Positions 598 to 14,298 are shown, counted from the first letter of the stretch. The stretch: 20,000 nucleotides of DNA from an uncultured virus (IMG/VR IMGVR_UViG_3300002071_000003) (IMGVR_UViG_3300002071_000003:55901-75900); one strand, 5' to 3'. A program made the numbers and translations. The notes: a model not told the origin generated them from the sequence alone.

Positions 598-3500
598 TTA
601 GTAATCTCTATCACTGAGTACTAATAACAGAGTTCTCTCTGATAATCTAAGTATAATTTCCTGTGGTTCTGTTTCTACTATCTTTATTACTATATCATCT
701 AATCTTTCCTGTGGAACTATTAGATCACTTAATACTAATCCTAATGCCACGTCACTTATTATTAGTGTCTTTAGTATGTATTCAAATATTATGTAAACTT
801 GGGCCTGTCCATATCCAGCAGACTTGCTGAATACTGCCTGAGCCTGTGCATAGCCTTCATAAGTTGCCTGAACCCAAACAGCAGATTGGCCGTATACCCA
901 ATCGTAGGTTTGAACCAATGTTTGTGTAGATGCTGCCTGATTAATACCTGACAGTATAACGCTGGCTTCGGCCTGTCCGTATATATTAATAGTTGTCTTA
1001 ACTAATCCTTGGGCGTTAGCTTGTGTCTGATTAATATACAGTCCAAGGATTTGAGTCTGTGCTTGTGCATAACCGCTAGAAACTTGCTTAATTGCTACGC
1101 CACTGTTAGCATATCCCATACCAACAAGGTAAATCTTAGCCTGAGCCTGAGCAACAGCAGGGAACGTTGATCTTATGTGAACGCTGACCTGTGCATAAAC
1201 CTGGCTTATTTGTTTGATTTGTGCTATTGCCTGTGAATATGTCTTATATGTAGTTTTTACTTGCGCCTGTGCTTGTGCAGATGCTTGATAATTCTGCTCT
1301 ATGCTGGTTCGTGCATTAGCACATACTGTGTATGACTGTTTAATATCAGCCAATACCTGTGCTGGCTGAACACTTGATCCGCCGATCCACGCAGATGCTT
1401 GTGTAAATACTAAACTCTTAGCCTTTATATCAGTTTGTGACTGCGTAAATATCTGGCTAATAGCCTTAATTTTAGTCTGCGCCTGTGCATAAGCTGTGTA
1501 GGTAGTTTCTATATCTACCTTTGCTTGTGCAAATACATTATAGGTATGCTCTATATCAGTCTGAGATTGAGCATAAACTGTCTGACCCCAATCTTTAATA
1601 TCGGCCTGTGATTGACCATATCCCTTAACAGCAATGCCCTTAATCTTTGCTTGGATACTTGCTACAACTTGCTTTGTTGTTGTAACTCTTACCCTTGCCT
1701 GAGCAGAAACGTTTTTGCCCCAATCTAGGATACCTGCTTGGCTTTGTGCATAAGTAGTTTGTCCCCAATCCTTAACATCGGCTTGTACCTGAGCATATGT
1801 TGTAATACCAAGAGTCTTTACTCTTGCTTGTGCTTGCGCTAGTCCTAATGCAGAACCACCAATCCACACTGTAGCCTGTGCGTAATGTTGTATAATACTC
1901 TTTATGTATGCTTGTACCTGAGCGTATGCTTTAATTCCAGATACGATATACGCCTGCGTTTGGGCACTAACAACTATATTACTTACTTCAATATAGCCAG
2001 TAGCCTGTCCATAAGATTGATAACTATTTTGGACATTTACCATAGATTGCGCAAATGTATAATATGTTTGACTTATATCAGTTTGTGACTGAGCATATGC
2101 CTGATAAGTTTGTGTAATATCAGCATTAGATTGTGCATAAGACTGATACTGAGTCAAAATAGCTGCCTGTGCTTGACCGCTGCAAACTATATCATTTATG
2201 ACCACTAACGCAGTAGTTTGCCCTGTTTGAGCCGCTGTAACCTTTATATCTGCTTCTGCCTGTCCGTATACCTGTAGACCTGACAGTTGAATGTAGGCAT
2301 TTACTTGCGCCCCAACTAACGAGGATTGCTTGATACTTGTCTGTGCTTGGGACACGGAATAATAACTCTTTTTGATATCTGCCATTGCTTGCGCAACTGT
2401 TTGATATTTTTGATTTACCCATGCTTGTGCTTGAGCTACTACTTGGAAGGTTCTCTTAACATCAGTTTGTGCCTGCGCCCATTGAGGATAATTGAAGGCA
2501 TAAATCTTTACTTGCGCCTGAGCCGATACAGTGGTTCCACTAAAGCGGATATTTGTTATAGCCTGAGCAAATTGTGAAACATTAAATCCAACGATACGAG
2601 AGTTTGTCTGTGCCTGTACTAAGTATGTAGTCTTAACGTCCGCTTGTGCCTGACCAAGTGCTACCGTATTCGTAAACTTGATCCAAGTAGCTGCCTGTGC
2701 ATATACGCGACTTGTAACCTTGATATCGGTTTGGGATAGTCCAGACTGCATATAGTAGGACTTAATATCCGTTTGTGCGTTTGCAGATACCCTACTCTTT
2801 TGTAGGATAGTAGCTAACGCTTGACCGAAGACCTGTTCTGTTACTTTAATGTCAGTTTGAGCAATAGCAAATCCTTGCCCGATTTGCTTTATATCGGCCT
2901 GTGGTTGTGCATATTCCTGTCTACCGGATAAGATAATTTGTGCTTGTGCCTGAGAATTGGCAAATGAAACTGCCTTGATATCTGTTTGGCCCTGTGCAAA
3001 GGCAGTAGATTTAGCCTTAACGTCTACTTGGGTTTGAGCATAAACTGTTTGGCCCCAATTTTTAATGTCGGCCTGAGATTGTGCAAATCCGCCAACACCA
3101 GTACCCTTAATATTTGTAGCTGCCTGAGCATAAACTTGAACACCAAAAGCGTTTATATCAACTTGTGCTTGGGCATATCCAAGAGATGTGGCCTTTATAT
3201 TAACCTGTGTTTGTGCAGATACTAGTGAAGTCTGCTTAATATCAGTCTGAGTTTGAGCAAAGCCTTGACTAAATTGCTTGATATTGGCCTGTACTTGGGC
3301 ATAAGATAATCTACCAGAAAGAATGATTTGGGCATTAGCCTGACCATACCCTATGCCAACTTGCTTAATATCTGCCTGTGTTTGACCGTAAGTTGTTTGC
3401 CCCCAGTCTAGGATATTAGCATTAGATTGGGCATAAATAGTTGTAGTAGTTGCAGCACCCACTATCTGTACTTGTGCTTGGGCGCAAGAAACTAGCCCAA

Positions 3501-6255
3501 CAGTTTTAATCCAAGCAGTAGATTGGGCATAAGACTGTCTACTAGAAAGGATTATCTGTGATTGTACCTGAGCAAATCCTGTAGAAGTAACCTCAATATC
3601 TGTCTGAGTCTGAGCGTATACTGTATTATTGATAACCTTTATCCAAGAATTACCTTGCGCCCAAACCTGACTTGCTACCTTTACATCGGCTTGTGCATTT
3701 ACACTTGCTGTATAAGTTTGCGTGATATCTGTCTGAGTGTCTGCATATCCTTGGTAGGTCTGCTTTATATCTGTTTGCGCCTGAGCGTAAGCGCGTGAAG
3801 CAGCCTTGATATCCACTTGAGACTGTGCAAATACTTGACTGAACTGCTTTACGTCTACTTGGGCCTGTGCAAAGGAAGGTGTATAGCTCTTAATATCAGC
3901 ACAAGTTTGCCCCAACGTTGAGTAAGTAGCCTTAATCTTTGACTGTGTTTGGCCCCAAACTGTAATACTAGTTACCCTGATCCAAGAATTAGGCTGTGCA
4001 TACCCAGTAGAAGTTTGTTTAATATCAGTTTGTACCTGAGCAGATACCAAGGATACTTGCTTGATATCAGACTGTGCTTGAGCGTATGTAACAGCATACT
4101 GCTTTACATCAGTTTGCGTTTGGACAAACGCTTTCTGTACTGTTTTGATATCAGTCTGTGTCTGAGCTTCTGCTTCAATTAGTGTTATCTTTATCCATGC
4201 ATTAACTTGGGCAAATTGCTGTTTAGTAGATAACGCTGCTACAACCTGTGTCTGTGCCTGAGCATTTGCCCGATAGACTGTCTTAATATCAGTTTGGGCT
4301 TGTCCATAGACCTTAGATATAGCCTTAACATCTACATCTACTTGAGTTTGTGCAAAAGCGCCTTCGCAGTAGTCTGTCTGGAAGGCACCATTTTGGAAGG
4401 CATCACTTTGAAATGCACCAGAAATACAAAGTGGATATGTCTGTTTTATATCTGCCTGAGACTGCCCAAAGGTCTGAATGGATGTTCCTCTAATATTAAC
4501 CATAGACTGCGCATAAAACTGTACAGCAAAGGCATTGATCCTAGTTAATGTCTGTCCATAAGTTGTCTGCCCCGTATCCTTGATCCAAGCATTGGCTTGT
4601 GCAAATACTTGAATGCCCCAATCTTTTATGTCCGCTTGTGTCTGTGCATAAACTGTTTGTCCCCAGTCCTTAATATCTGACTGAGTTTGTCCATAAGTAT
4701 AACGTGTAGTCGCAGTAGCAATGGTAATCTGTGCCTGTACCTGAGCAAATGTTGGACTTTGTATTCCACCTATGGCCCCTGCCGTGTAGTGGGCGGCTAC
4801 TGCGGTCGATGATAGGGCCGTGTCGTAGATCGCAACCTCGTCTACGACCCCGTTCATCGGGTTTGCGCCAGCTACCTGAGCCGCGATTGTGACGGCCGTC
4901 TTGGACGGGAAGGTCCTCGCGACGCTGGTGCTATAGGTGCATTCCGCCCCGTCGAAATACATGTGCCGGGCGGCGCCATTCTTGGTGACAACGATGTGAT
5001 GGAAGAACGTCGTATCCATCCAGAAGCCCGCCACGGTATCGAGGCAGGACCCGGTGTATCCGAGGTCGAACACCAGACTGTTGTTGTACGAATAGATTTG
5101 CGCGCCGTGGTCATAGGACAGATAGACGTGGGTTCCACTGCTCGTGGAGTCACGCTTGACCCACATCTCCAGCGTGAACGTGTCCACGATCGCTGGCAGG
5201 GTCGCGACGGTTGCATACTGGGTTGATGCAGCCGCGAACCGGACCGCCGTATCCGAATCGCCAGTTAGGGCTCCGGCCACTCCGAGGGTCGGTGAGTTGA
5301 CATAGGTTCCGGTGGCCGTGGCGATGGCATCGGCCATGCTGGTCCCCGACAACTCACCTTGGCGCCAGTAGGCGATTGGTGAGTCTGCGAGGACCGTGGC
5401 AGAATAAGACGTACCGCCTCTTGGATATGTTTGTTTTATATCTGCTTGGGATTGGGCATAAGTCGTAATATTCCAATCTTTTATGTCTGATTGTGCTTGT
5501 GCTTCTACTTGTCTAGTAGTGGCCACTGCTACTACCGTTGCTTGTGCTTGTGCCCTTACTTCCATATTTTCTAACAGGGTTATCCAAGCAATAGCCCAGG
5601 TAGCAGATGTTCCTAAGGTAACGTTATAGGTTTGGGCGCCAGGTGCAGTAAGTATTTTTGCTTGTGAAGATATACTTTGCCCCGAGGTTGTTGTTCCATT
5701 TGTAGCAGTTTGTGCTGTAGTCCAAGAGCCGTTTGCAGTATCAGAATCATTAGTAAAGGTTTGAGCAGTGCCATACTGATCACCAACTGCACCAATTACT
5801 ATCTGAGCCTTATCAATAGAACTTGTTGTAATAGTTGGTGCAGTTGAGGAACCTGTTGCTGTAGCCCCTGTTTCATAAGCAACATTATTTCCTGCCGCGC
5901 TATCAACTTCTGTTAAGGCCCAAGCTGTAGACCCGACCGTCTTACCTCCGTAAGCTACAGTAATAGTATTTCCTGTAGTTAATGCCCCAACAGACATATT
6001 GGAAGTGAAAATACGCAGTACATTACCAGCACTAGCAGCACCCGGATCATTTAATGCATTCTGTCTAGGTGTCCAAGTATTACCTACAGAGTCGCTTATT
6101 GCTGAATAGGGATCAGCACCACTCGATCCTGCGTTGTCATAACTAATTTCTAGAACAGCCCATGACCCTGCTGTAAAGTTTGATGCCGGTGTTACAACTG
6201 CGGAAGTACCGCTACCTATCCCACCGCTACCCCTATTCGCTGTTGTTAATGCCAT
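598..6255 (-). CDS. Giant repeat protein (putative tail fibre/virion appendage) with an inserted LamG/concanavalin-A-like domain
   Basis: 1885-aa ORF with a ~230-aa Ser/Thr/Gly/Ala-rich N-terminal domain. A LamG-like segment runs from ADSPIAYWRQGE through FTLEMWVK and FHHIVVT...MYFDG to MNGVVDEVAIYDTALS...VAAHY. The remainder is degenerate 13-15 aa repeats of (Y/F)AQ(A/S/T)Q(A/T)DIK. Confidence 0.8.
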   Translation of the reverse strand: MALTTANRGSGGIGSGTSAVVTPASNFTAGSWAVLEISYDNAGSSGADPYSAISDSVGNTWTPRQNALNDPGAASAGNVLRIFTSNMSVGALTTGNTITVAYGGKTVGSTAWALTEVDSAAGNNVAYETGATATGSSTAPTITTSSIDKAQIVIGAVGDQYGTAQTFTNDSDTANGSWTTAQTATNGTTTSGQSISSQAKILTAPGAQTYNVTLGTSATWAIAWITLLENMEVRAQAQATVVAVATTRQVEAQAQSDIKDWNITTYAQSQADIKQTYPRGGTSYSATVLADSPIAYWRQGELSGTSMADAIATATGTYVNSPTLGVAGALTGDSDTAVRFAAASTQYATVATLPAIVDTFTLEMWVKRDSTSSGTHVYLSYDHGAQIYSYNNSLVFDLGYTGSCLDTVAGFWMDTTFFHHIVVTKNGAARHMYFDGAECTYSTSVARTFPSKTAVTIAAQVAGANPMNGVVDEVAIYDTALSSTAVAAHYTAGAIGGIQSPTFAQVQAQITIATATTRYTYGQTQSDIKDWGQTVYAQTQADIKDWGIQVFAQANAWIKDTGQTTYGQTLTRINAFAVQFYAQSMVNIRGTSIQTFGQSQADIKQTYPLCISGAFQSDAFQNGAFQTDYCEGAFAQTQVDVDVKAISKVYGQAQTDIKTVYRANAQAQTQVVAALSTKQQFAQVNAWIKITLIEAEAQTQTDIKTVQKAFVQTQTDVKQYAVTYAQAQSDIKQVSLVSAQVQTDIKQTSTGYAQPNSWIRVTSITVWGQTQSKIKATYSTLGQTCADIKSYTPSFAQAQVDVKQFSQVFAQSQVDIKAASRAYAQAQTDIKQTYQGYADTQTDITQTYTASVNAQADVKVASQVWAQGNSWIKVINNTVYAQTQTDIEVTSTGFAQVQSQIILSSRQSYAQSTAWIKTVGLVSCAQAQVQIVGAATTTTIYAQSNANILDWGQTTYGQTQADIKQVGIGYGQANAQIILSGRLSYAQVQANIKQFSQGFAQTQTDIKQTSLVSAQTQVNIKATSLGYAQAQVDINAFGVQVYAQAATNIKGTGVGGFAQSQADIKNWGQTVYAQTQVDVKAKSTAFAQGQTDIKAVSFANSQAQAQIILSGRQEYAQPQADIKQIGQGFAIAQTDIKVTEQVFGQALATILQKSRVSANAQTDIKSYYMQSGLSQTDIKVTSRVYAQAATWIKFTNTVALGQAQADVKTTYLVQAQTNSRIVGFNVSQFAQAITNIRFSGTTVSAQAQVKIYAFNYPQWAQAQTDVKRTFQVVAQAQAWVNQKYQTVAQAMADIKKSYYSVSQAQTSIKQSSLVGAQVNAYIQLSGLQVYGQAEADIKVTAAQTGQTTALVVINDIVCSGQAQAAILTQYQSYAQSNADITQTYQAYAQSQTDISQTYYTFAQSMVNVQNSYQSYGQATGYIEVSNIVVSAQTQAYIVSGIKAYAQVQAYIKSIIQHYAQATVWIGGSALGLAQAQARVKTLGITTYAQVQADVKDWGQTTYAQSQAGILDWGKNVSAQARVRVTTTKQVVASIQAKIKGIAVKGYGQSQADIKDWGQTVYAQSQTDIEHTYNVFAQAKVDIETTYTAYAQAQTKIKAISQIFTQSQTDIKAKSLVFTQASAWIGGSSVQPAQVLADIKQSYTVCANARTSIEQNYQASAQAQAQVKTTYKTYSQAIAQIKQISQVYAQVSVHIRSTFPAVAQAQAKIYLVGMGYANSGVAIKQVSSGYAQAQTQILGLYINQTQANAQGLVKTTINIYGQAEASVILSGINQAASTQTLVQTYDWVYGQSAVWVQATYEGYAQAQAVFSKSAGYGQAQVYIIFEYILKTLIISDVALGLVLSDLIVPQERLDDIVIKIVETEPQEIILRLSERTLLLVLSDRDY

Positions 6256-6393: not shown

Positions 6394-6867
6394 CTATCCG
6401 CTTATTCCCATTCTTCCATCAGAGAATAAGGAAATTAGCATTTTTACGTTACGCCCACCATATTCTTCGGGGGTTGTAGTTTGTAGGCCAATAATCTTAG
6501 CTGGAACCCCTGCCGTAACCCTAGTAAACCAAATAGGTCTAAACTGTAAAGGAATAAAAGTATTAACATAATCCCCCTTAGCATCAGCCTCAGAAGGCTC
6601 TATGTTCATTAATTCCCCCACTACGTTTGTTTCCTCGCACAAATAGAGCACCGTTCTTGGGTTCTGTATCTCTACAGTACCGTTCTGAATGTTCCAAGCA
6701 TCATAACCAATAATAACGACACCATTGAGCAAATCAACAGCGACTTTTTGATTAAAGTCCTCCTGAAGTATGAACTTCAGGTTTCCCTCTTCGCCTTGTT
6801 GTACGGGTCTTCCGTCCTGATCCTCGTGGAGTATCTGATCCTGCTTCGTTATCGCTGTCCATCCCAT
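6394..6867 (-). CDS. Hypothetical protein
   Basis: 157-aa ORF with globular-looking composition and GAGGAAAAGG upstream of the ATG. It overlaps the 3' end of the upstream ORF. Confidence 0.75.
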   Translation of the reverse strand: MGWTAITKQDQILHEDQDGRPVQQGEEGNLKFILQEDFNQKVAVDLLNGVVIIGYDAWNIQNGTVEIQNPRTVLYLCEETNVVGELMNIEPSEADAKGDYVNTFIPLQFRPIWFTRVTAGVPAKIIGLQTTTPEEYGGRNVKMLISLFSDGRMGISG

Positions 6868-8311
6868 CTACCTTTTCCTCCGGTTTCTTCTCTTCCCACT
6901 CTTGGGGAATTGGTCCCCATATTCTTTCTTCTGGCTTACCTATGAAGTTAAACTTAGGTGATTCCCTACCAGCGGCCACTAATTGGATATCCTTAACAAC
7001 TTCTTCTTCTGTCATAGGGCGTTCCTTAGGGTCGGGATATATTGCCATTGGCCACCAGTTAGGTGATTGAGGTCCAGATTCCATACCCTCAGGGGTTATG
7101 TTATCTATCTCTGGATGACTTACTTTCTTGGCGCGAAGTTGAATACTCCAAGCATCAGGGCTAGGATTTCCAAATACTTCTGCCCCTTCGCTTACCTCTA
7201 TATCTTCAAAACATCCTAAGCTTTCAACTAGCATTCGAAGAGATTTAGGAGTAAATCCTGCTGCGTGGAAGTTCTTAGCATAATCCTGCTCACCATATAG
7301 CACCCAGTAGTCTGTAGGATACATTTGGTCTATAGCCATCCTATATCCGACATGCCTTAGGTTGGGAACAATTAGTCTTAATTCCCCACCAACTTTTAGG
7401 ATTCTAACCCACTCTTTAAGAACTTTTTGAACGTCATTGAATCCAAAATGTTCAAGTGTGTGAGAACTATATACAATATCAAACGTTTGATTTGGTACTG
7501 GTAGATGACGAACATCGCAAACTACGGTTGGGTTTAATTCCTCTCTAATATCAAATGAAACTACATTTCCCTCATCCCGCATATACGGGGAGACTGGGCC
7601 AGCCCCAATATCAGCAATTAGCTTTTCCCCTGCTGGTAGGATTTCCCATCCAGCATGAGCCTGTGGAGCATTAGCAGGAATTCCAAACATGACCTTCGAA
7701 TTCTTTTCAAAGTGAAATGCCTGGACCGCTGTATCTGCCCAAACCTTATATCCAGCTTTCTTAGCCTTCCAATAAAAGTACAAGTCTTCTGTATTATTAA
7801 CAGGTGTTTCCTTTACCCCCGCAAAAGAAGCGTAGTCTACAGAGTACCAAGGTCCCCCCAGTTCTTTCTGTATCTTTCGATAAACATCTGTCTTGACTAA
7901 AGTTAGCCCACTACCAGCAGCATCTATCTCAATTAAATCCCCTACGTGCCAGTTATAATAAGGGCCATCAAAATGTCCTCTAAAAAGAAGAGGCATTGGA
8001 GGATTAGACTTAGACCAATATACCCCATTTATAATATCCTTGTGCTGATTGAACAGTCTTAAAAACGAATCAGGGGGCGCAATTACATCATCGTCTAACC
8101 AATAAATGTAATTTGCCCCCTGACTTAGTGCAAACTCTACAATCTCGTTTCGTGCATCAGCAATCGGCTTATTCAACACGATCTTATCTATAGCACTTGA
8201 AACAAGTGGAAACTGTTGAGATAATCTACTTTGGAGGAAGTATGTACTTACCATTCCAAAAGACGGAATTCCGACAACTACGTTTAATCCATAGGTGTTA
8301 TTTGCTACCAT
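6752..8311 (-). CDS. Glycosyltransferase (GT-A/GT2-like) fused to a class I SAM-dependent methyltransferase
   Basis: N-half has IADARNEIVEFAL...ANYIYWLDDD (DxD), AAGSGLTLVKTDVY and TEDLYFYWKAKKAGYKVWAD. C-half has IADIGAG (motif I), CDVRHLPVPNQTFDIVYSSHTLEH and VLKEWVRILKVGGELRLIVP. Confidence 0.88.
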   Translation of the reverse strand: MVANNTYGLNVVVGIPSFGMVSTYFLQSRLSQQFPLVSSAIDKIVLNKPIADARNEIVEFALSQGANYIYWLDDDVIAPPDSFLRLFNQHKDIINGVYWSKSNPPMPLLFRGHFDGPYYNWHVGDLIEIDAAGSGLTLVKTDVYRKIQKELGGPWYSVDYASFAGVKETPVNNTEDLYFYWKAKKAGYKVWADTAVQAFHFEKNSKVMFGIPANAPQAHAGWEILPAGEKLIADIGAGPVSPYMRDEGNVVSFDIREELNPTVVCDVRHLPVPNQTFDIVYSSHTLEHFGFNDVQKVLKEWVRILKVGGELRLIVPNLRHVGYRMAIDQMYPTDYWVLYGEQDYAKNFHAAGFTPKSLRMLVESLGCFEDIEVSEGAEVFGNPSPDAWSIQLRAKKVSHPEIDNITPEGMESGPQSPNWWPMAIYPDPKERPMTEEEVVKDIQLVAAGRESPKFNFIGKPEERIWGPIPQEWEEKKPEEKVDGMDSDNEAGSDTPRGSGRKTRTTRRRGKPEVHTSGGL

Positions 8312-10710: not shown

Positions 10711-10940
10711 GGGTGTGAATTATGACTATTACGGGCACGGCTCTCTTTAATATCTTCTAGAAACATATCTACTATCAAACCTAATGCAAAGGTAGCCATA
10801 ATTAGCGCTGCGACAAAGATCACATACCCAAATAGTTCTTTACCCAGTATAAGAATTGCTAACCCCGGAATACCTAGTATAATTGCTACAGGTATAGCGC
10901 CTAAAACAAAGATTCGTAATCCCTTTAATATGCGTCTCAT
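10704..10940 (-). CDS. Small membrane protein (two predicted TM helices)
   Basis: Likely start is ATG 10940 (MRRILKG..., GGAGAG RBS), followed by two hydrophobic stretches. The longer ORF-track version runs through tRNA genes. Confidence 0.7.
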   Translation of the reverse strand: MRRILKGLRIFVLGAIPVAIILGIPGLAILILGKELFGYVIFVAALIMATFALGLIVDMFLEDIKESRARNSHNSHPC

Positions 10941-10960
10941 CTTCTCTCCAAATAAAAAAT

Positions 10961-11035
10961 TGGCGGGGGAGGTAGGATTCGAACCTACACTACGCGGTTC
11001 CAAAGACCGCTGCATTACCATTATGCTACTCCCCT
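10961..11035 (-). tRNA. tRNA-Gln(UUG)
   Basis: Anticodon arm GCGGT-CTTTGGA-ACCGC, D arm GCAT-AATGGTA-ATGC, T arm GTAGG-TTCGAAT-CCTAC, G73 then CCA. The 1:72 pair is mismatched. Confidence 0.9.
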
Positions 11036-11046
11036 GCGAAAAAGTT

Positions 11047-11120
11047 TGGCTGGCACGGGTGGATTTGAACCACCATATCAAGGTTAACAGCCTAGCGTCC
11101 TACCATTGAACGACACGCCA
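11047..11120 (-). tRNA. tRNA-Asn(GUU)
   Basis: Acceptor TGGCGTG/CGTGCCA, anticodon arm CTAGG-CTGTTAA-CCTTG, T arm GGTGG-TTCAAAT-CCACC, G73 then CCA. Confidence 0.92.
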
Positions 11121-11123
11121 ACG

Positions 11124-11270
11124 ATTAGTTATAGAGAGGATTAGATGACTTCGGGATGCGCGTCCCCGCGTGGGTTAGGTTGCCAAGCCTACTTATTAGA
11201 GGCGTACGACATTTTATAATTGGTGTTAATATGTTGAAGTATCCGAAACCGTCACTACCCATAAACTAAT
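11124..11270 (-). ncRNA. Y-like RNA copy 6 (long non-tRNA insert)
   Basis: AUUAGUUUAUGGG-UAGUGAC-GGUUUCGG-AUACUUC-[~80 nt]-CCGAAGUC-AUCUAAUCCU-CUCUAUAACUAAU. Same scaffold as the other five copies. Confidence 0.7.
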
Positions 11271-11381
11271 TATAACTATAAGGGCTTATAAAATGTTACA
11301 GGTTACGTAGTCCTGTTGCCTCGGTAATAATTCATTACCCCTCCGCTCGCAAGCACGTAGGCCGTTACAAAATTAAATTAG

Positions 11382-11503
11382 ATTAGAGAGAATTTGCTGT
11401 GCCAGAAAACACGAGACTTTCATCCCGTTTGCAGGGGGTTGAACCTTGCTGATGTAACCGAAGCTACTGTAACCGAAGTATCTGAACACTTCACTGCTCT
11501 AAT
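11382..11503 (-). ncRNA. Y-like RNA copy 5 (reduced tRNA-like insert)
   Basis: AUUAGAG-CAGUGAA-GUGUUCAG-AUACUUC-[UUCG hairpin, T-arm-like hairpin, 7-bp GAAA hairpin]-CUGGCAC-AGCAAAUUCU-CUCUAAU. Confidence 0.75.
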
Positions 11504-11517
11504 ATAAAACGCAAATT

Positions 11518-11652
11518 AAATAAGGAGAATTAGTCGCTATTGGATATTTAGCGTGTTACCATTACACCCATCCCCCATGACGGAGGATAAGGGATTCGAA
11601 CCCTTTACTCTTCATTAAAAGTGAAGTAACCAACGGCTGCACTACCTTATTT
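11518..11652 (-). ncRNA. Y-like (YrlA-type) RNA copy 4, permuted tRNA-Lys(UUU) mimic
   Basis: AAAUAAGG-UAGUGCA-GCCGUUGG-UUA-[CUUCA-CUUUUAA-UGAAG]-AGUA-[AAGGG-UUCGAAU-CCCUU]-[AUCCUCC-GUCAU-GGGGGAU]-GG-[GUGU-AAUGGUA-ACAC]-...-CCAAUAGC-GACUAAUUCU-CCUUAUUU. Confidence 0.88.
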
Positions 11653-11889
11653 ACTTGTTATTTGGCCTTTAAAGAAGCTACCTACTATACCTAATAGAAG
11701 TGCTATACCTATTCCTTGCGCCCAACTAATAATTGGGAACTGAAATAGTCCTACTAACAGCCAGTTCCATAGCAAGGTTATTACCCCGCCGATCAGTCCT
11801 AAATATAGAACCAAGAACAGAACTACCGCTATCAGCATTGCTAGACAAGCTGTCCCAGTATAATTCTTAGTTTTAAACGTACTCTTCAT
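11647..11889 (-). CDS. Small membrane protein
   Basis: Likely start is ATG 11889 (MKSTFKTKNY..., GAGGT RBS), giving 80 aa, mostly hydrophobic. The longer ORF-track version overlaps tRNA-Glu. Confidence 0.72.
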   Translation of the reverse strand: MKSTFKTKNYTGTACLAMLIAVVLFLVLYLGLIGGVITLLWNWLLVGLFQFPIISWAQGIGIALLLGIVGSFFKGQITSK

Positions 11890-11900
11890 TTGTACCTCTT

Positions 11901-11976
11901 TGGTAGCCCAACAGAGAATCGAACTCTGATCGGCAGAGTGAAAATCTGCAATCCTCAACCGTTAGACGATTGGGCC
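11901..11976 (-). tRNA. tRNA-Glu(UUC)
   Basis: Acceptor GGCCCAA/TTGGGCT, anticodon arm GCAGA-TTTTCAC-TCTGC, T arm CAGAG-TTCGATT-CTCTG, CCA. Confidence 0.92.
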
Positions 11977-11982
11977 AAAATT

Positions 11983-12126
11983 TATTAGGAGAATTTGGTC
12001 GCGTAGGCTTTTTTACTGGCCGCTGCTCTAACACTGAGCTATTCCCCGGCGATTGTTCGGGGAAGAGAGAATTGAACTCCCGACATGCGGCTCCCATGAA
12101 GAAATCCTATGCTTCACTACCTAATA
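11983..12126 (-). ncRNA. Y-like (YrlA-type) RNA copy 3, permuted tRNA-Pro-like mimic
   Basis: UAUUAGG-UAGUGAA-GCAUAGG-AUUUCUUC-AUGGGA-GCCGC-AUGUC-[GGGAG-UUCAAUU-CUCUC]-[UUCCCCG-AACAAUCGC-CGGGGAA]-UA-[GCUC-AGUGUUA-GAGC]-A-GCGGC-...-CCUACGC-GACCAAAUUCU-CCUAAUA. Confidence 0.9.
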
Positions 12127-12139
12127 CTAGGTTCTAAAT

Positions 12140-12227
12140 TTATCTAGGAGGATTTAGTGGCTCTGGCTTTTTACAAAAGACATTTTGAAGTTTTTAGAAG
12201 TATCCAAAACCTTCACTACCTAGATAA
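12140..12227 (-). ncRNA. Y-like RNA copy 2 (minimal)
   Basis: UUAUCUAGG-UAGUGAA-GGUUUUGG-AUACUUC-[30 nt AU-rich]-CCAGAGCC-ACUAAAUCCU-CCUAGAUAA. Confidence 0.8.
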
Positions 12228-12240
12228 TATAATATTCAAT

Positions 12241-12314
12241 TAATCGGAGAATTGGGTCGCTTAGAGTTTGGTTTTCATTTCAAGAGAAGTATCTCTAAAC
12301 TTCACTGCCGATTA
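12241..12314 (-). ncRNA. Y-like RNA copy 1 (minimal)
   Basis: UAAUCGG-CAGUGAA-GUUUAGAG-AUACUUC-[19 nt]-CUCUAAGC-GACCCAAUUCU-CCGAUUA. Confidence 0.8.
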
Positions 12315-12316
12315 TA

Positions 12317-12511
12317 TTATTCTGCTCTATCTACGTAACTTGTGTTGTCCAAGCCACGATGAATATCAGCCACTAATGAATTCGCTAGTGACCAAAGATG
12401 TTTTGCGTTCTCCTGAATGTTATCCTCTTTACGAAGAATCTTAAAGGCTTCTACAACTTCTTTGGCTCTATCGGTTGCTGCCGTTACCGTTTTTGAATCG
12501 GGGGTTTCCAT
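12317..12511 (-). CDS. Hypothetical helical protein
   Basis: 64-aa ORF with AGGAG RBS, located between the Ro60 gene and the ncRNA array. Confidence 0.65.
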   Translation of the reverse strand: METPDSKTVTAATDRAKEVVEAFKILRKEDNIQENAKHLWSLANSLVADIHRGLDNTSYVDRAE

Positions 12512-12714
12512 TTTAATCTCCTATTATATTGCTAGCTTAGTCCGGCTCGTCTAGCTTGATCCTTTAACAGCCCCTTATCGGTGACGACCACGGCGGATCA
12601 ATTGTTTGATATTTTGGGTGGGCTGACTGTTCACCAGCCTGTACCAGCCTGTGAAATCGTACAGGGGATTACTCCAACGTACGACCACGCTCTACAGCGG
12701 TAGCACCCGCGATA

Positions 12715-14298
12715 TTACCACTTATTAATGTGCTGCTCCATAACATTGTTCTCCACAATGTTCATGTAATCGATGATCTTGTCTGACCACCCATTGACCA
12801 AGATAACGTTCTTAGACTTGTTTGGAGTCTGACGTGTTCCATACGAACTAACATCAAGAGAGTATAGATACGCATTTCTATTTACTTGCGCCAAGTAGTT
12901 CTTCCATTCCTCATTCACAAACGAATCTGTGTACCAAGGATAGGTTGTTCCAAAAATTCCGGCCTTGCTCTGACTTTTTTCGGTATTGTAACACTGCATG
13001 TCAGAGACAAGCACGATACGATCTACCTTGATCTTGTTATCAGTCAAAATCTTGAATGCAAGTCCAGCGTTTGTACTGTGACCGACATTTGTATTTACAA
13101 TTTTATCGATGTTGGTGATCATAGTATCGTCAGGATTTACCATGATTCTACGCGCAGTCTGACCGAAGCCGATAACTACAGATTCCTTAGCCTTCTTGGT
13201 AACGATTGCCCCAAGAACGGCCGCAACTTCTGCATTTGTCACCTTAGACTTTTCGGACACTCGCGCTCCTGTCATAGACCCTGAAAGGTCCACAAGAACC
13301 GCTGTACTTCCACCAAGCGTAACATTAGAGATAGACAATTCAAAAGCCTTAGCGATTGCTCGCATAATGCTCTGATTCTCAATTTCCTTATACGCAGAGT
13401 AGAATCTATATGGTAGCTGCTTAGACTTCTTTACAGCGTCCTCATCTGTAATTCGCGCAAGGATAGGATCAAGAGTTACACCCTTTTGGTCAAAGTTACG
13501 CAAGTTACGTAGCAATGCCATATATCCCATCTTAGGAGCGATTAACTCCCAAGTTTCCTTAGACGAACCAAACTTGGAGATGAAAGATTCCCAAGTTACT
13601 GCTCCACCGTTTACAAGGGCCTTTGCCTCAACATCCAGTGTATCCTTTGCAAGCAACTGCTTTAGTGCTGCAATCTTTGGCAATGCTTCTGCGTCAACAA
13701 CATCGTTGACAAGATAGTTTCGCATAGCCTTGGAAACAGGATATCCTTCCTTACGGTAAATAAGATTGAGCACATCACCTAGAGAAACTGCTCCCTTATC
13801 AGAATCATATTTATTCAATTGGTATTCGTCAAATGTAGCGAAGGCTGCTGCCAAACCCTTTTTTAGGGCATTTGGAATAGGCTTTCCATGTGTAGACAAC
13901 TGGTAAGCGATAACACCGCTCAATTCATCTGCACGCTTTACAATCTTAGGAGTATACTCACGAATAAATGGCTTACACTTTTCAATGTTAGCCGCCTCCA
14001 CAAGCAAGACCTGTGGGGTTGTTCGGAGATAAATCTCGTTACGAGCATATGCAGCCAACTGGAGAATAAACTTCGGATTAACTGCTGCTACTTCACGGAT
14101 ATCCTTTACAATCTCTGCGGCAATCTTATCTCCGCTCTTGTAGAAAGTGTCCTCACTCCAAAAGGCTCCAAGAACACGTTCAATTAGGCGATCCTTAGCA
14201 GGAAGCTTCCATGCTACTGCGGCCTCTTCATTAAGAGTCACGTTTTCGGGATCAAGGGACTGTAAGGTTACTGCTGTCTTTGTATTTAACTTAACCAT
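12715..14298 (-). CDS. rsr: Ro60/Rsr-type RNA-binding protein (TROVE domain plus vWA domain)
   Basis: TROVE motifs EDTFY, YARNEIYLRTTP, RADEL, FDEYQLNKY, TWE, MGYMALLRNLRN and SKQLPYRFYSAY. vWA MIDAS motif DLSGSM...STN...SDMQ. 527 aa. Confidence 0.95.
   Translation of the reverse strand: MVKLNTKTAVTLQSLDPENVTLNEEAAVAWKLPAKDRLIERVLGAFWSEDTFYKSGDKIAAEIVKDIREVAAVNPKFILQLAAYARNEIYLRTTPQVLLVEAANIEKCKPFIREYTPKIVKRADELSGVIAYQLSTHGKPIPNALKKGLAAAFATFDEYQLNKYDSDKGAVSLGDVLNLIYRKEGYPVSKAMRNYLVNDVVDAEALPKIAALKQLLAKDTLDVEAKALVNGGAVTWESFISKFGSSKETWELIAPKMGYMALLRNLRNFDQKGVTLDPILARITDEDAVKKSKQLPYRFYSAYKEIENQSIMRAIAKAFELSISNVTLGGSTAVLVDLSGSMTGARVSEKSKVTNAEVAAVLGAIVTKKAKESVVIGFGQTARRIMVNPDDTMITNIDKIVNTNVGHSTNAGLAFKILTDNKIKVDRIVLVSDMQCYNTEKSQSKAGIFGTTYPWYTDSFVNEEWKNYLAQVNRNAYLYSLDVSSYGTRQTPNKSKNVILVNGWSDKIIDYMNIVENNVMEQHINKW

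Follow-up and report, generated by a model that had tools for sequence, protein, structure and literature searches.

What kind of RNA does a virus encode when all the arms of a tRNA, in a rearranged order, stand downstream of its Ro60 gene? The locus that raises this question lies in a window of 20,000 nucleotides (nt), which is the final 20 kb of the 75.9-kb record of an uncultured virus (IMGVR_UViG_3300002071_000003:55901-75900). This record is 63% complete, and a second record of the same virus is 117 kb long and 98% complete. The element in question, Y-c, measures 131 nt between the ends of its terminal stem, was delimited to 11520-11650 by its minimum free energy (MFE) fold and occurs once in the 75.9-kb record; its coordinates all refer to the minus strand. 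Six RNAs of the window, Y-c among them, share a paired handle; they are named Y-0 and Y-a to Y-e. We consider it probable, at roughly 0.6, that Y-c is a YrlA-type Y RNA gene with Ro60 as its partner, the handle of which would dock on Ro60 and the tRNA-shaped module of which would engage host proteins that recognise tRNA.

Architecture of Y-c and its family

The 5′ strand of the handle (11627-11650) holds a terminal stem, the conserved UAGUG, a variable helix and the conserved GUUAC, which corresponds to the YUAY of Chen et al. 2014; it is common to the six window RNAs and to relatives, in which helices 1 and 2 covary. It is followed by the hairpin CUUCA-CUUUUAA-UGAAG (11610-11626), by the spacer AGUA where a tRNA has its variable loop (11606-11609; 4 nt, a length found in the tRNA-Asn of the phage too) and by the T arm AAGGG-UUCGAAU-CCCUU (11589-11605). 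Then come the acceptor-like stem AUCCUCC/GGGGGAU (11570-11588; 7 base pairs (bp), one of them G-U), which is closed by the loop GUCAU and has no CCA, the dinucleotide GG at positions 8-9 (11568-11569) and the D arm GUGU-AAUGGUA-ACAC (11553-11567). The last part (11520-11552) consists of G26, the A-rich linker CUAAAUAU and the 3′ strand of the handle with its conserved bulge CUAAUUCUCC, recognised in the sequence, the fold and the alignment.

The unconstrained MFE fold of 11518-11652 contains every one of these helices as well as the terminal stem. The energy of this fold is -36.7 kcal/mol, compared with -29.15 +/- 3.21 kcal/mol in shuffled sequences (z -2.35), and 2 of 200 shuffles fold as well. 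The Rfam tRNA model matches 11589-11644, T arm included, at model positions 8-63 with 24.8 bits (E 0.023), below its gathering score of 29. Judged by sequence and predicted fold, the module is a complete tRNA look-alike, the chain of which is opened between positions 26 and 27. The initial annotation, made from the sequence alone, had described such a mimic with all four arms, opened between the D and anticodon arms, in which the conserved CUUC of the handle doubles as the 5′ strand of the anticodon-like stem. Each of the arms was found in its proposed place on the minus strand, in the sequence as well as in the MFE fold, and the opening, the Ro60 context and the double use of CUUC were borne out.

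The presumed protein partner is encoded at 12715-14298 on the minus strand. It is a Ro60 protein of 527 amino acids with TROVE and von Willebrand factor A domains (Pfam TROVE, E 2.8e-34; vWA_Ro60, E 1.2e-07). Among 7998 scored proteins, 1332 were its relatives at E <= 1e-20, the best being 51-96% identical, and 80 viral, 80 metagenomic and 80 cellular-genome Ro60 loci were fetched. A covariance model, R1, was built from nine RNAs with the Y-c architecture. It gave 238 matches in 100 viral and metagenomic Ro60 loci and 143 matches in 80 cellular ones; outside the window, 221 of 232 matches, counted among the matches listed, lay on the Ro60 strand. Y-c itself scored 108.7 bits, being one of the training sequences.

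In the alignment fitted to the model, 93.4% of the cells were paired (61.4% in shuffles), changes on both sides were seen in 29 of 30 pairs and all seven helices covaried; the hairpin helix was 82.8% paired. Together with the family matches, this shows a structure beyond chance. When RNAalifold was applied to a plain MAFFT alignment, compensatory changes were found in 21 of 25 pairs. Comparison with related viruses showed that the 5′ side of the handle is made of a terminal stem, the conserved (Y)AGUG, a variable helix and the conserved GUUAC or GAUAC followed by UUC, and the 3′ side of the A-rich linker, the other strand of the variable helix and a conserved CUAAUUCUCC-type bulge. Since the handle is common to all six Y RNAs of the phage, it is most likely the Ro60-binding module.

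According to PMC4201824, YrlA RNAs are encoded no further than 4 kb from Ro60, on its strand, and their T arm, closed acceptor stem-loop and D arm follow in this order; in many of them a fourth stem-loop, with YUAY ahead of it, stands upstream of the T arm. Y-c starts 1065 nt downstream of Ro60 on the same strand, and its T arm, closed acceptor and D arm follow in that order, with covariation in relatives. Its paired ends form a stem with the putative Ro60-binding module (MFE fold; helices 1 and 2 covary), and UUAC at 11630-11627, invariant in the alignment, opens its V region. By these sequence features Y-c belongs to the YrlA class of Chen et al. 2014, as a new and diverged member, and is not a new kind of RNA.

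The V stem-loop of Y-c and its relatives

In PMC4201824, Chen et al. 2014 drew the hairpin upstream of the T arm as a "V stem-loop", oriented as the variable arm of a tRNA, with the conserved YUAY opening the V loop. The hairpin of Y-c lies exactly in this place, with UUAC directly ahead of it. At the same time, it has the marks of a tRNA anticodon arm: a stem of 5 bp, a loop of 7 nt with U33 and a purine at position 37, and a distance of 4 nt to the T stem.

We therefore counted, using our own script, the hairpins with a perfect 5-bp stem, a 7-nt loop and a gap of exactly 4 or 5 nt to the T stem. The phage and metagenome set comprised the best 150 of the 238 R1 matches, of which 135 were at least 100 nt long and yielded 104 distinct RNAs with a recognisable T arm; the 143 cellular matches gave 115 such rows and 101 RNAs. 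Rows shorter than 100 nt or without a T arm fitting the pattern were dropped, and mononucleotide shuffles of the 45 nt upstream served as the null. The hairpin was present in 42 of the 104 phage and metagenome RNAs (2.2% in shuffles) and in 41 of the 101 cellular RNAs (2.1% in shuffles); as the rows are related, the counts do not represent independent events. Four hairpins, two in each set, start at offset 13 and may belong to ordinary tRNA genes inside the match.

The 42 phage and metagenome loops carry U33 in 39 cases, a purine at position 37 in 41 and both in 38, together with C32 in 31 and A38 in 36, and 24 of them read CU-NNN-AA. Meanwhile, their stems are of 30 kinds. Among the cellular hairpins, 37 of 41 have both U33 and the purine, and the bearers include cultured Lentzea, Microbispora, Streptosporangium, Actinomadura and Streptomyces. 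In most hairpin RNAs the 5′ strand of the stem is the conserved UUCG or CUUC of the handle. The D arm and the handle are separated by an A-rich linker of 9-11 nt in relatives and 9 nt in Y-c; therefore, it is the hairpin, not the handle, that would be placed to stack under the D stem.

These results indicate that the predicted V stem-loop mimics an anticodon arm in these RNAs, a mimicry that is real and widely distributed. They agree with the expectation, contained in the initial annotation, that homologues keep 7-nt anticodon-like loops. Its statement that YrlA RNAs generally lack a closed anticodon loop did not hold, as about 40% of the relatives, cultured actinobacteria included, bear the hairpin; in the text of 10.1101/312249 the lack of this loop is described for the Salmonella YrlA only. 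In the parts of PMC4201824, its supplement and 10.1101/312249 that were consulted, no statement was found that the V stem-loop is anticodon-like; figures and reviews, which lie outside that scope, may discuss it.

Three related viruses have, inside the same handle, a tRNA body in the normal order (L008:6933-7064, L010:7087-7219 and L011:6392-6524). These bodies consist of UA, a D arm, an anticodon arm with a lysine-type CUU or UUU loop, a variable loop and a T arm, and their acceptor-like stem has 4 bp only, formed with the UUCG of the handle. The Rfam tRNA model scores 46 bits on L008:6959-7022 and 46.7 bits on L010:7113-7178, the acceptor ends being absent. From their sequences, these RNAs look like tRNAs captured in a Y RNA frame. 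A further handle RNA of the first virus (L008:6284-6430) encloses an almost complete tRNA-like sequence, which is matched by model positions 1-71 at L008:6333-6402 with 34.2 bits.

Possible roles of Y-c

Y RNAs dock on Ro60 via a conserved bulged stem near their ends, and a second module tethers or gates other proteins, as described in PMC4201824 and 10.1101/312249; for YrlA's tRNA-like domain, the latter source expects a tRNA-binding protein as the partner. In the mechanism that we propose, the ends of Y-c would pair into the conserved bulged handle, which would dock on the phage Ro60. The handle would carry the anticodon-arm mimic, the 4-nt variable loop, the T arm, the loop-closed acceptor and the D arm, and this tRNA-shaped head, anticodon-type loop included, would engage host proteins recognising tRNA. 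Y-c might then hold such proteins on Ro60, or else be a competitor of real tRNAs for them, in a phage that has 28 tRNA genes of its own. Two published points bear on this: in phage Bas63, a Ro60-like protein acts against a defence system (PMC11482910), and for the Salmonella YrlA a role as competitive inhibitor of an anticodon nuclease was put forward (PMC7790460). The conserved U33 and purine 37 suggest that the engaged proteins include anticodon-loop readers. If the hairpin is an anticodon-arm mimic, the candidate partners widen from elbow binders to modification enzymes and anticodon nucleases, and this is directly testable with cultured hosts and phages such as Lentzea, Microbispora, Streptomyces, Atuin and LuckySocke.

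Several observations weigh against this reading. The GNCGAAN0-1G motif of YrlA is not present in the handle, the 5′ strand of which reads AUAAGGUAGUGCAGCC... without CGAA; the family keeps (Y)AGUG instead. Positions 8-9, between the acceptor-like stem and the D arm, are GG in Y-c, the only such case among 66 relatives with a perfect closed acceptor, of which 47 have UA. Moreover, A15 and A48, as read from the sequence, cannot form the usual 15:48 pair; therefore, the elbow of Y-c may be less tRNA-like than that of other members. The nearest relatives (Ro60 65-78% identical) have differently built RNAs without a D arm in this place, and thus the exact architecture is not conserved in the closest clade. 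The Rfam YrlA model (RF02553, gathering score 69 bits) does not match Y-c at E <= 10. A search of the minus strand from 10900 to 12700 found no sigma-70-like promoter, and none of the contigs from the four sequencing runs examined covers the whole of Y-c, the metatranscriptome ones spanning Y-e and part of Y-d. Finally, we infer Ro60 binding from position and conservation only, and the expression of Y-c and any further partner are likewise putative.

As for the Rfam result, the model had eleven matches of 35-45 bits, of which the six on actinobacterial loci scored only 36.5-44.8 bits; therefore, the YrlA model or its threshold is narrow. The hairpin-bearing RNAs match it only in the T-acceptor-D core (positions 24-84).

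The loop of Y-c is of the lysine type, and the initial annotation had read it as a lysine-specific identity. This was not upheld, as the triplet varies: the 38 phage and metagenome loops with U33 and a purine at position 37 contain 20 kinds (GUU 5, UGU 3, UUU 3, UCC 3, CUU 2 and others), and the RNAs of close relatives have AAU, UUA, UCA and UGG besides UUU and CUU. For the same reason, we regard as quite unlikely the narrower proposal that the CUUUUAA loop makes a Ro60-bound RNA the bait or inhibitor of nucleases of the PrrC or AriB type that cut tRNA-Lys(UUU). The loop is indeed identical to that of the phage's own tRNA-Lys(UUU), and U36-A37-A38-U39 of Y-c is the UAAU common to the E. coli tRNAs cut by AriB, according to PMC12409363; lysine-type loops also recur in the clade (L088 CUUUUAA; L008 and L010 CUCUUAA; L011 CCUUUAA, the last read by eye), and a competitive-inhibitor role against an anticodon nuclease was suggested for the Salmonella YrlA (PMC7790460). 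However, L094:3339-3473, the relative most like Y-c in every arm, has the loop CUUGGGA, the RNAs in the corresponding place of the closest viruses (L005 and L006) have UUAAUAC and CUUUAGA, and positions 40-41 of Y-c are G-A rather than the C|A that AriB cuts best in the account of PMC12409363. The triplets GUU, UGU, UUU and CUU together make up 13 of the 38 loops, and the targets of AriB given in the same source are Lys UUU, Thr UGU and Asn GUU. This agreement is suggestive and is confounded by shared descent and U-rich composition, from which the enrichment of NNU triplets among related rows can stem. The hairpin could also be an evolutionary leftover, namely the surviving anticodon arm of an ancestral tRNA or tRNA dimer that is now structural and has no loop-specific partner; this we hold to be rather unlikely. 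Origin from a dimeric tRNA predicts the order of anticodon arm, variable loop and T arm from the first tRNA and D arm from the second (10.1101/312249, citing Sim and Wolin 2018), a proposed origin of YrlA that the build of Y-c fits. The unpermuted tRNA bodies without acceptor ends in the handles of L008 and L010, as well as the free drift of the triplet, are in line with it. Nevertheless, U33, purine 37, C32 and A38 are kept while the stems change, which argues for selection on the loop and not for its mere survival, and the loop signature is the same in distant cellular lineages. Nor is the segment a recent copy of any of the 28 tRNAs of the phage: the best local score of 14/38 is within the range of unrelated tRNAs (median 9, maximum 21), and recent copying was rejected. 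The GG and D arm segment (11553-11569) has its best local match among these tRNAs in tRNA-Trp (15/25).

Could Y-c nonetheless be a working tRNA? By sequence and predicted fold the acceptor is closed by GUCAU without CCA, and the reading of the initial annotation, that the RNA is sealed and cannot be charged, is uncertain. The YrlA of Mycobacterium smegmatis is the only one of three tested that has a 7-bp acceptor. PMC4201824 reports that RNase P cuts it in vitro and that in vivo it undergoes both cleavage and CCA addition; the 7-bp stem made it an RNase P substrate, and the acceptor loop of Y-c, by analogy, may be opened too. Perfect 7-bp acceptor stems are present in 53 of the 104 relatives. 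A two-piece tRNA would arise if RNase P cut 5′ of G1 in GUCAU, the 3′ end were trimmed and given CCA, and the handle held the halves together in a chargeable form. The acceptor length shared with the M. smegmatis RNA, the four arms with an anticodon-type loop and a G3:U70 pair speak for it, and still we find it very improbable. CCA is encoded in all 28 tRNA genes of the phage, not in Y-c; U8 is absent; tRNA-Lys UUU and CUU are already encoded by the phage; and the 75.9-kb record, incomplete as stated above, yielded no gene for a CCA-adding enzyme. G3:U70 occurs in 4 of the 53 seven-bp stems, about the chance rate, and was therefore rejected as an alanine identity mark. We know of no decoding tRNA with a handle of about 25 bp at position 26/27. 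Y-c is not recognised by the tRNA finder and lacks free paired ends with CCA; ARAGORN called neither a tRNA nor a transfer-messenger RNA (tmRNA) at Y-c, and without CCA and with G3:U70 at the chance rate it does not correspond to a tmRNA, two-piece permuted forms included. In circularly permuted tRNA genes of the red-alga type, the ends of the precursor are joined and the acceptor linker is removed, which leaves a normal mature tRNA. For Y-c, the conserved 25-bp handle, shared with neighbours that are not tRNA-like, argues against this. That there is no gene at all, but decayed tandem tRNA pseudogenes folding by chance, is hardly conceivable: Y-c does lie in a tRNA-rich stretch and none of the RNA contigs examined spans it, but its handle is common to six neighbours and hundreds of Ro60-adjacent RNAs, and every helix covaries.

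The reading of Y-c as a Ro60-bound Y RNA invites a bolder extension, which is tentative and in our judgement doubtful. Here, the V stem-loop of about 40% of YrlA-type RNAs, bacterial ones as well as those of phages, would be a selected anticodon-arm mimic within a whole tRNA look-alike opened at 26/27 and mounted on Ro60, and the phage panels would be Ro60-held baits or tethers for anticodon-loop enzymes, including defence nucleases favouring Lys, Asn and Thr, which are the commonest types among the 38 loops. The unpermuted tRNA-Lys-like bodies would then be snapshots of the passage from tRNA to Y RNA.

The Y RNA array, its surroundings and known systems

The six handle RNAs all lie on the minus strand within 1.6 kb downstream of Ro60, and by their inserts they comprise a short pair, a tRNA-shaped pair and a pair with other folds. 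The short ones, recognised by the shared handle, are Y-0 (12242-12313; R1 22.2 bits) and Y-a (12143-12224). The second tRNA-like Y RNA, Y-b (11984-12125), is of the Salmonella type, with a T arm, a closed acceptor, UA, a D arm GCUC..GAGC and an open anticodon stem; it was identified by its fold, by R1 (33.8 bits) and by a weak Rfam YrlA match at 11998-12112 (30.9 bits, E 2.7e-4; gathering score 69). Y-d (11383-11502) and Y-e (11129-11264), assigned by the shared handle and the fold, have different inserts, and Y-e ends 9 nt ahead of tRNA-Asn. The inserts of Y-0, Y-a, Y-d and Y-e are not tRNA-like. In the 75.9-kb record, the minus strand has five occurrences of the strict 5′ handle motif, every one of them within the array stretch, and the plus strand has none.

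Across 11129-12313, the six RNAs are interleaved with tRNA-Glu and an 80-codon open reading frame (ORF). This hydrophobic, membrane-like ORF (11647-11889, minus strand) has an ATG start with AAGAGG ahead of it, as read from the sequence, and its stop codon overlaps the first bases of Y-c; its longer frame of 103 amino acids had no match in Pfam. In the region 11100-12800, Rfam families other than tRNA and YrlA gave chance-level matches only, and blastn of 11100-12720 against phage records gave matches limited to tRNA-Glu and a short stretch of Y-b. The exact-pattern and single-protein scans of IMG/VR returned another record of the same virus and nothing else.

Fifteen sequencing runs hold part of the stretch, of which four were examined; the contigs reveal neither RNA ends nor strand. 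Two metatranscriptome contigs from one study (370 and 284 nt) cover 11123-11467 and 11123-11382, are 90-95% alike to the window and come from a relative. They are a weak hint that the Y RNAs of this relative are transcribed, DNA carry-over being possible. A 164-nt contig of unspecified kind covers 11446-11583. One terminator-like hairpin was seen, inside Y-d, and the counts of promoters and terminators were at or below the shuffle expectation. By analogy with M. smegmatis, Y-c is probably cut from a long transcript together with tRNAs.

All genes of the window are on the minus strand and include a family A DNA polymerase, a DnaG-type primase, ThyX, a ribonucleotide reductase fragment, nine tRNA genes and Ro60. 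The 28 tRNA genes of the phage (G000:C1:48181-54828 and the window) cover all 20 amino acids, tRNA-Ile(UAU) included, and contain the phage's own tRNA-Lys UUU and CUU. In the 75.9-kb record there was no family match for a CCA-adding enzyme, and RtcB had none either there or in the 117-kb record. The latter contains, about 26 kb from Ro60, an ORF of 241 amino acids with a match to the RNA ligase family PF09414 (L170:1372-2097; 48.2 bits), the product of which could seal a nicked tRNA or Y RNA. Elsewhere in the window, a 519-amino-acid protein has glycosyltransferase-like and methyltransferase domains (6752-8311, minus strand), and a protein of 1885 amino acids with a concanavalin-like lectin domain (598-6255, minus strand) is probably a tail fibre or similar.

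R1 matches were also found in six regions of named phages, including Arthrobacter phage Atuin, Streptomyces phage LuckySocke and Brevundimonas phage Domovoi. These three have two or three tandem matches, Atuin three (L164:5402-5829, L165:2923-3413 and L168:2807-3440, respectively), for which GenBank annotation is mostly absent; one match in LuckySocke overlaps an annotated tRNA-Ser(gct) at L165:3274-3347. The neighbouring genes are annotated as "Ro-like RNA binding protein" or "hypothetical protein". On the contig of a distant Ro60-encoding virus, a full-length tmRNA gene (L015:2541-2889; Rfam 119.5 bits) lies about 1 kb upstream of a Y RNA array. The array of the window shows that in some phages a single Ro60 is accompanied by half a dozen distinct Y RNAs.

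Y-c itself is more ordinary than first thought: the family of which it is a diverged member has been described before, and the lysine-type loop is not conserved. The main value lies in the family-wide anticodon-loop signature of the V stem-loop, and further in the six-member Y RNA arrays and the unpermuted tRNA bodies in handles.

Among known systems, YrlA (RF02553), as presented in PMC4201824 and, with a crystal structure, by Wang et al. 2018 (10.1101/312249), shares with Y-c the position next to Ro60 on the same strand, the paired ends, the order of T arm, closed acceptor and D arm, the YUAY-type UUAC ahead of the V stem-loop and the presence of several Y RNAs per locus. In contrast, Y-c falls under the Rfam threshold, has no GNCGAAN0-1G motif, has GG instead of UA and joins its D arm to the handle by a 9-nt linker. 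The Salmonella YrlA described in 10.1101/312249 differs in that its handle-side stem is its anticodon stem, without an anticodon loop, and the M. smegmatis YrlA of PMC4201824 resembles Y-c in its 7-bp acceptor-like stem closed by a loop. The Y RNA Yrn1 of Deinococcus radiodurans was modelled in the same source with a potential 5-bp "anticodon arm". However, its loop has 6 nt, it lacks a V region and its T and D elements are in another orientation, whereas Y-c has a 7-nt loop with U33 and A37 and a 4-nt variable spacer.

Phage-encoded tRNA variants that escape anticodon nucleases, such as the T5 tRNAs for Lys, Thr and Asn against AriB of PARIS (PMC12409363), have in common with Y-c a phage RNA with a lysine-type loop and a large phage tRNA set; they are functional chargeable tRNAs that replace the cut host tRNAs, unlike Y-c with its closed acceptor and Ro60-type handle. 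tmRNA and viral tRNA-like structures such as that of turnip yellow mosaic virus are, like Y-c, L-shaped tRNA mimics within a larger RNA; those mimics, in the account of 10.1101/312249, differ from it in having free CCA ends and being aminoacylated.

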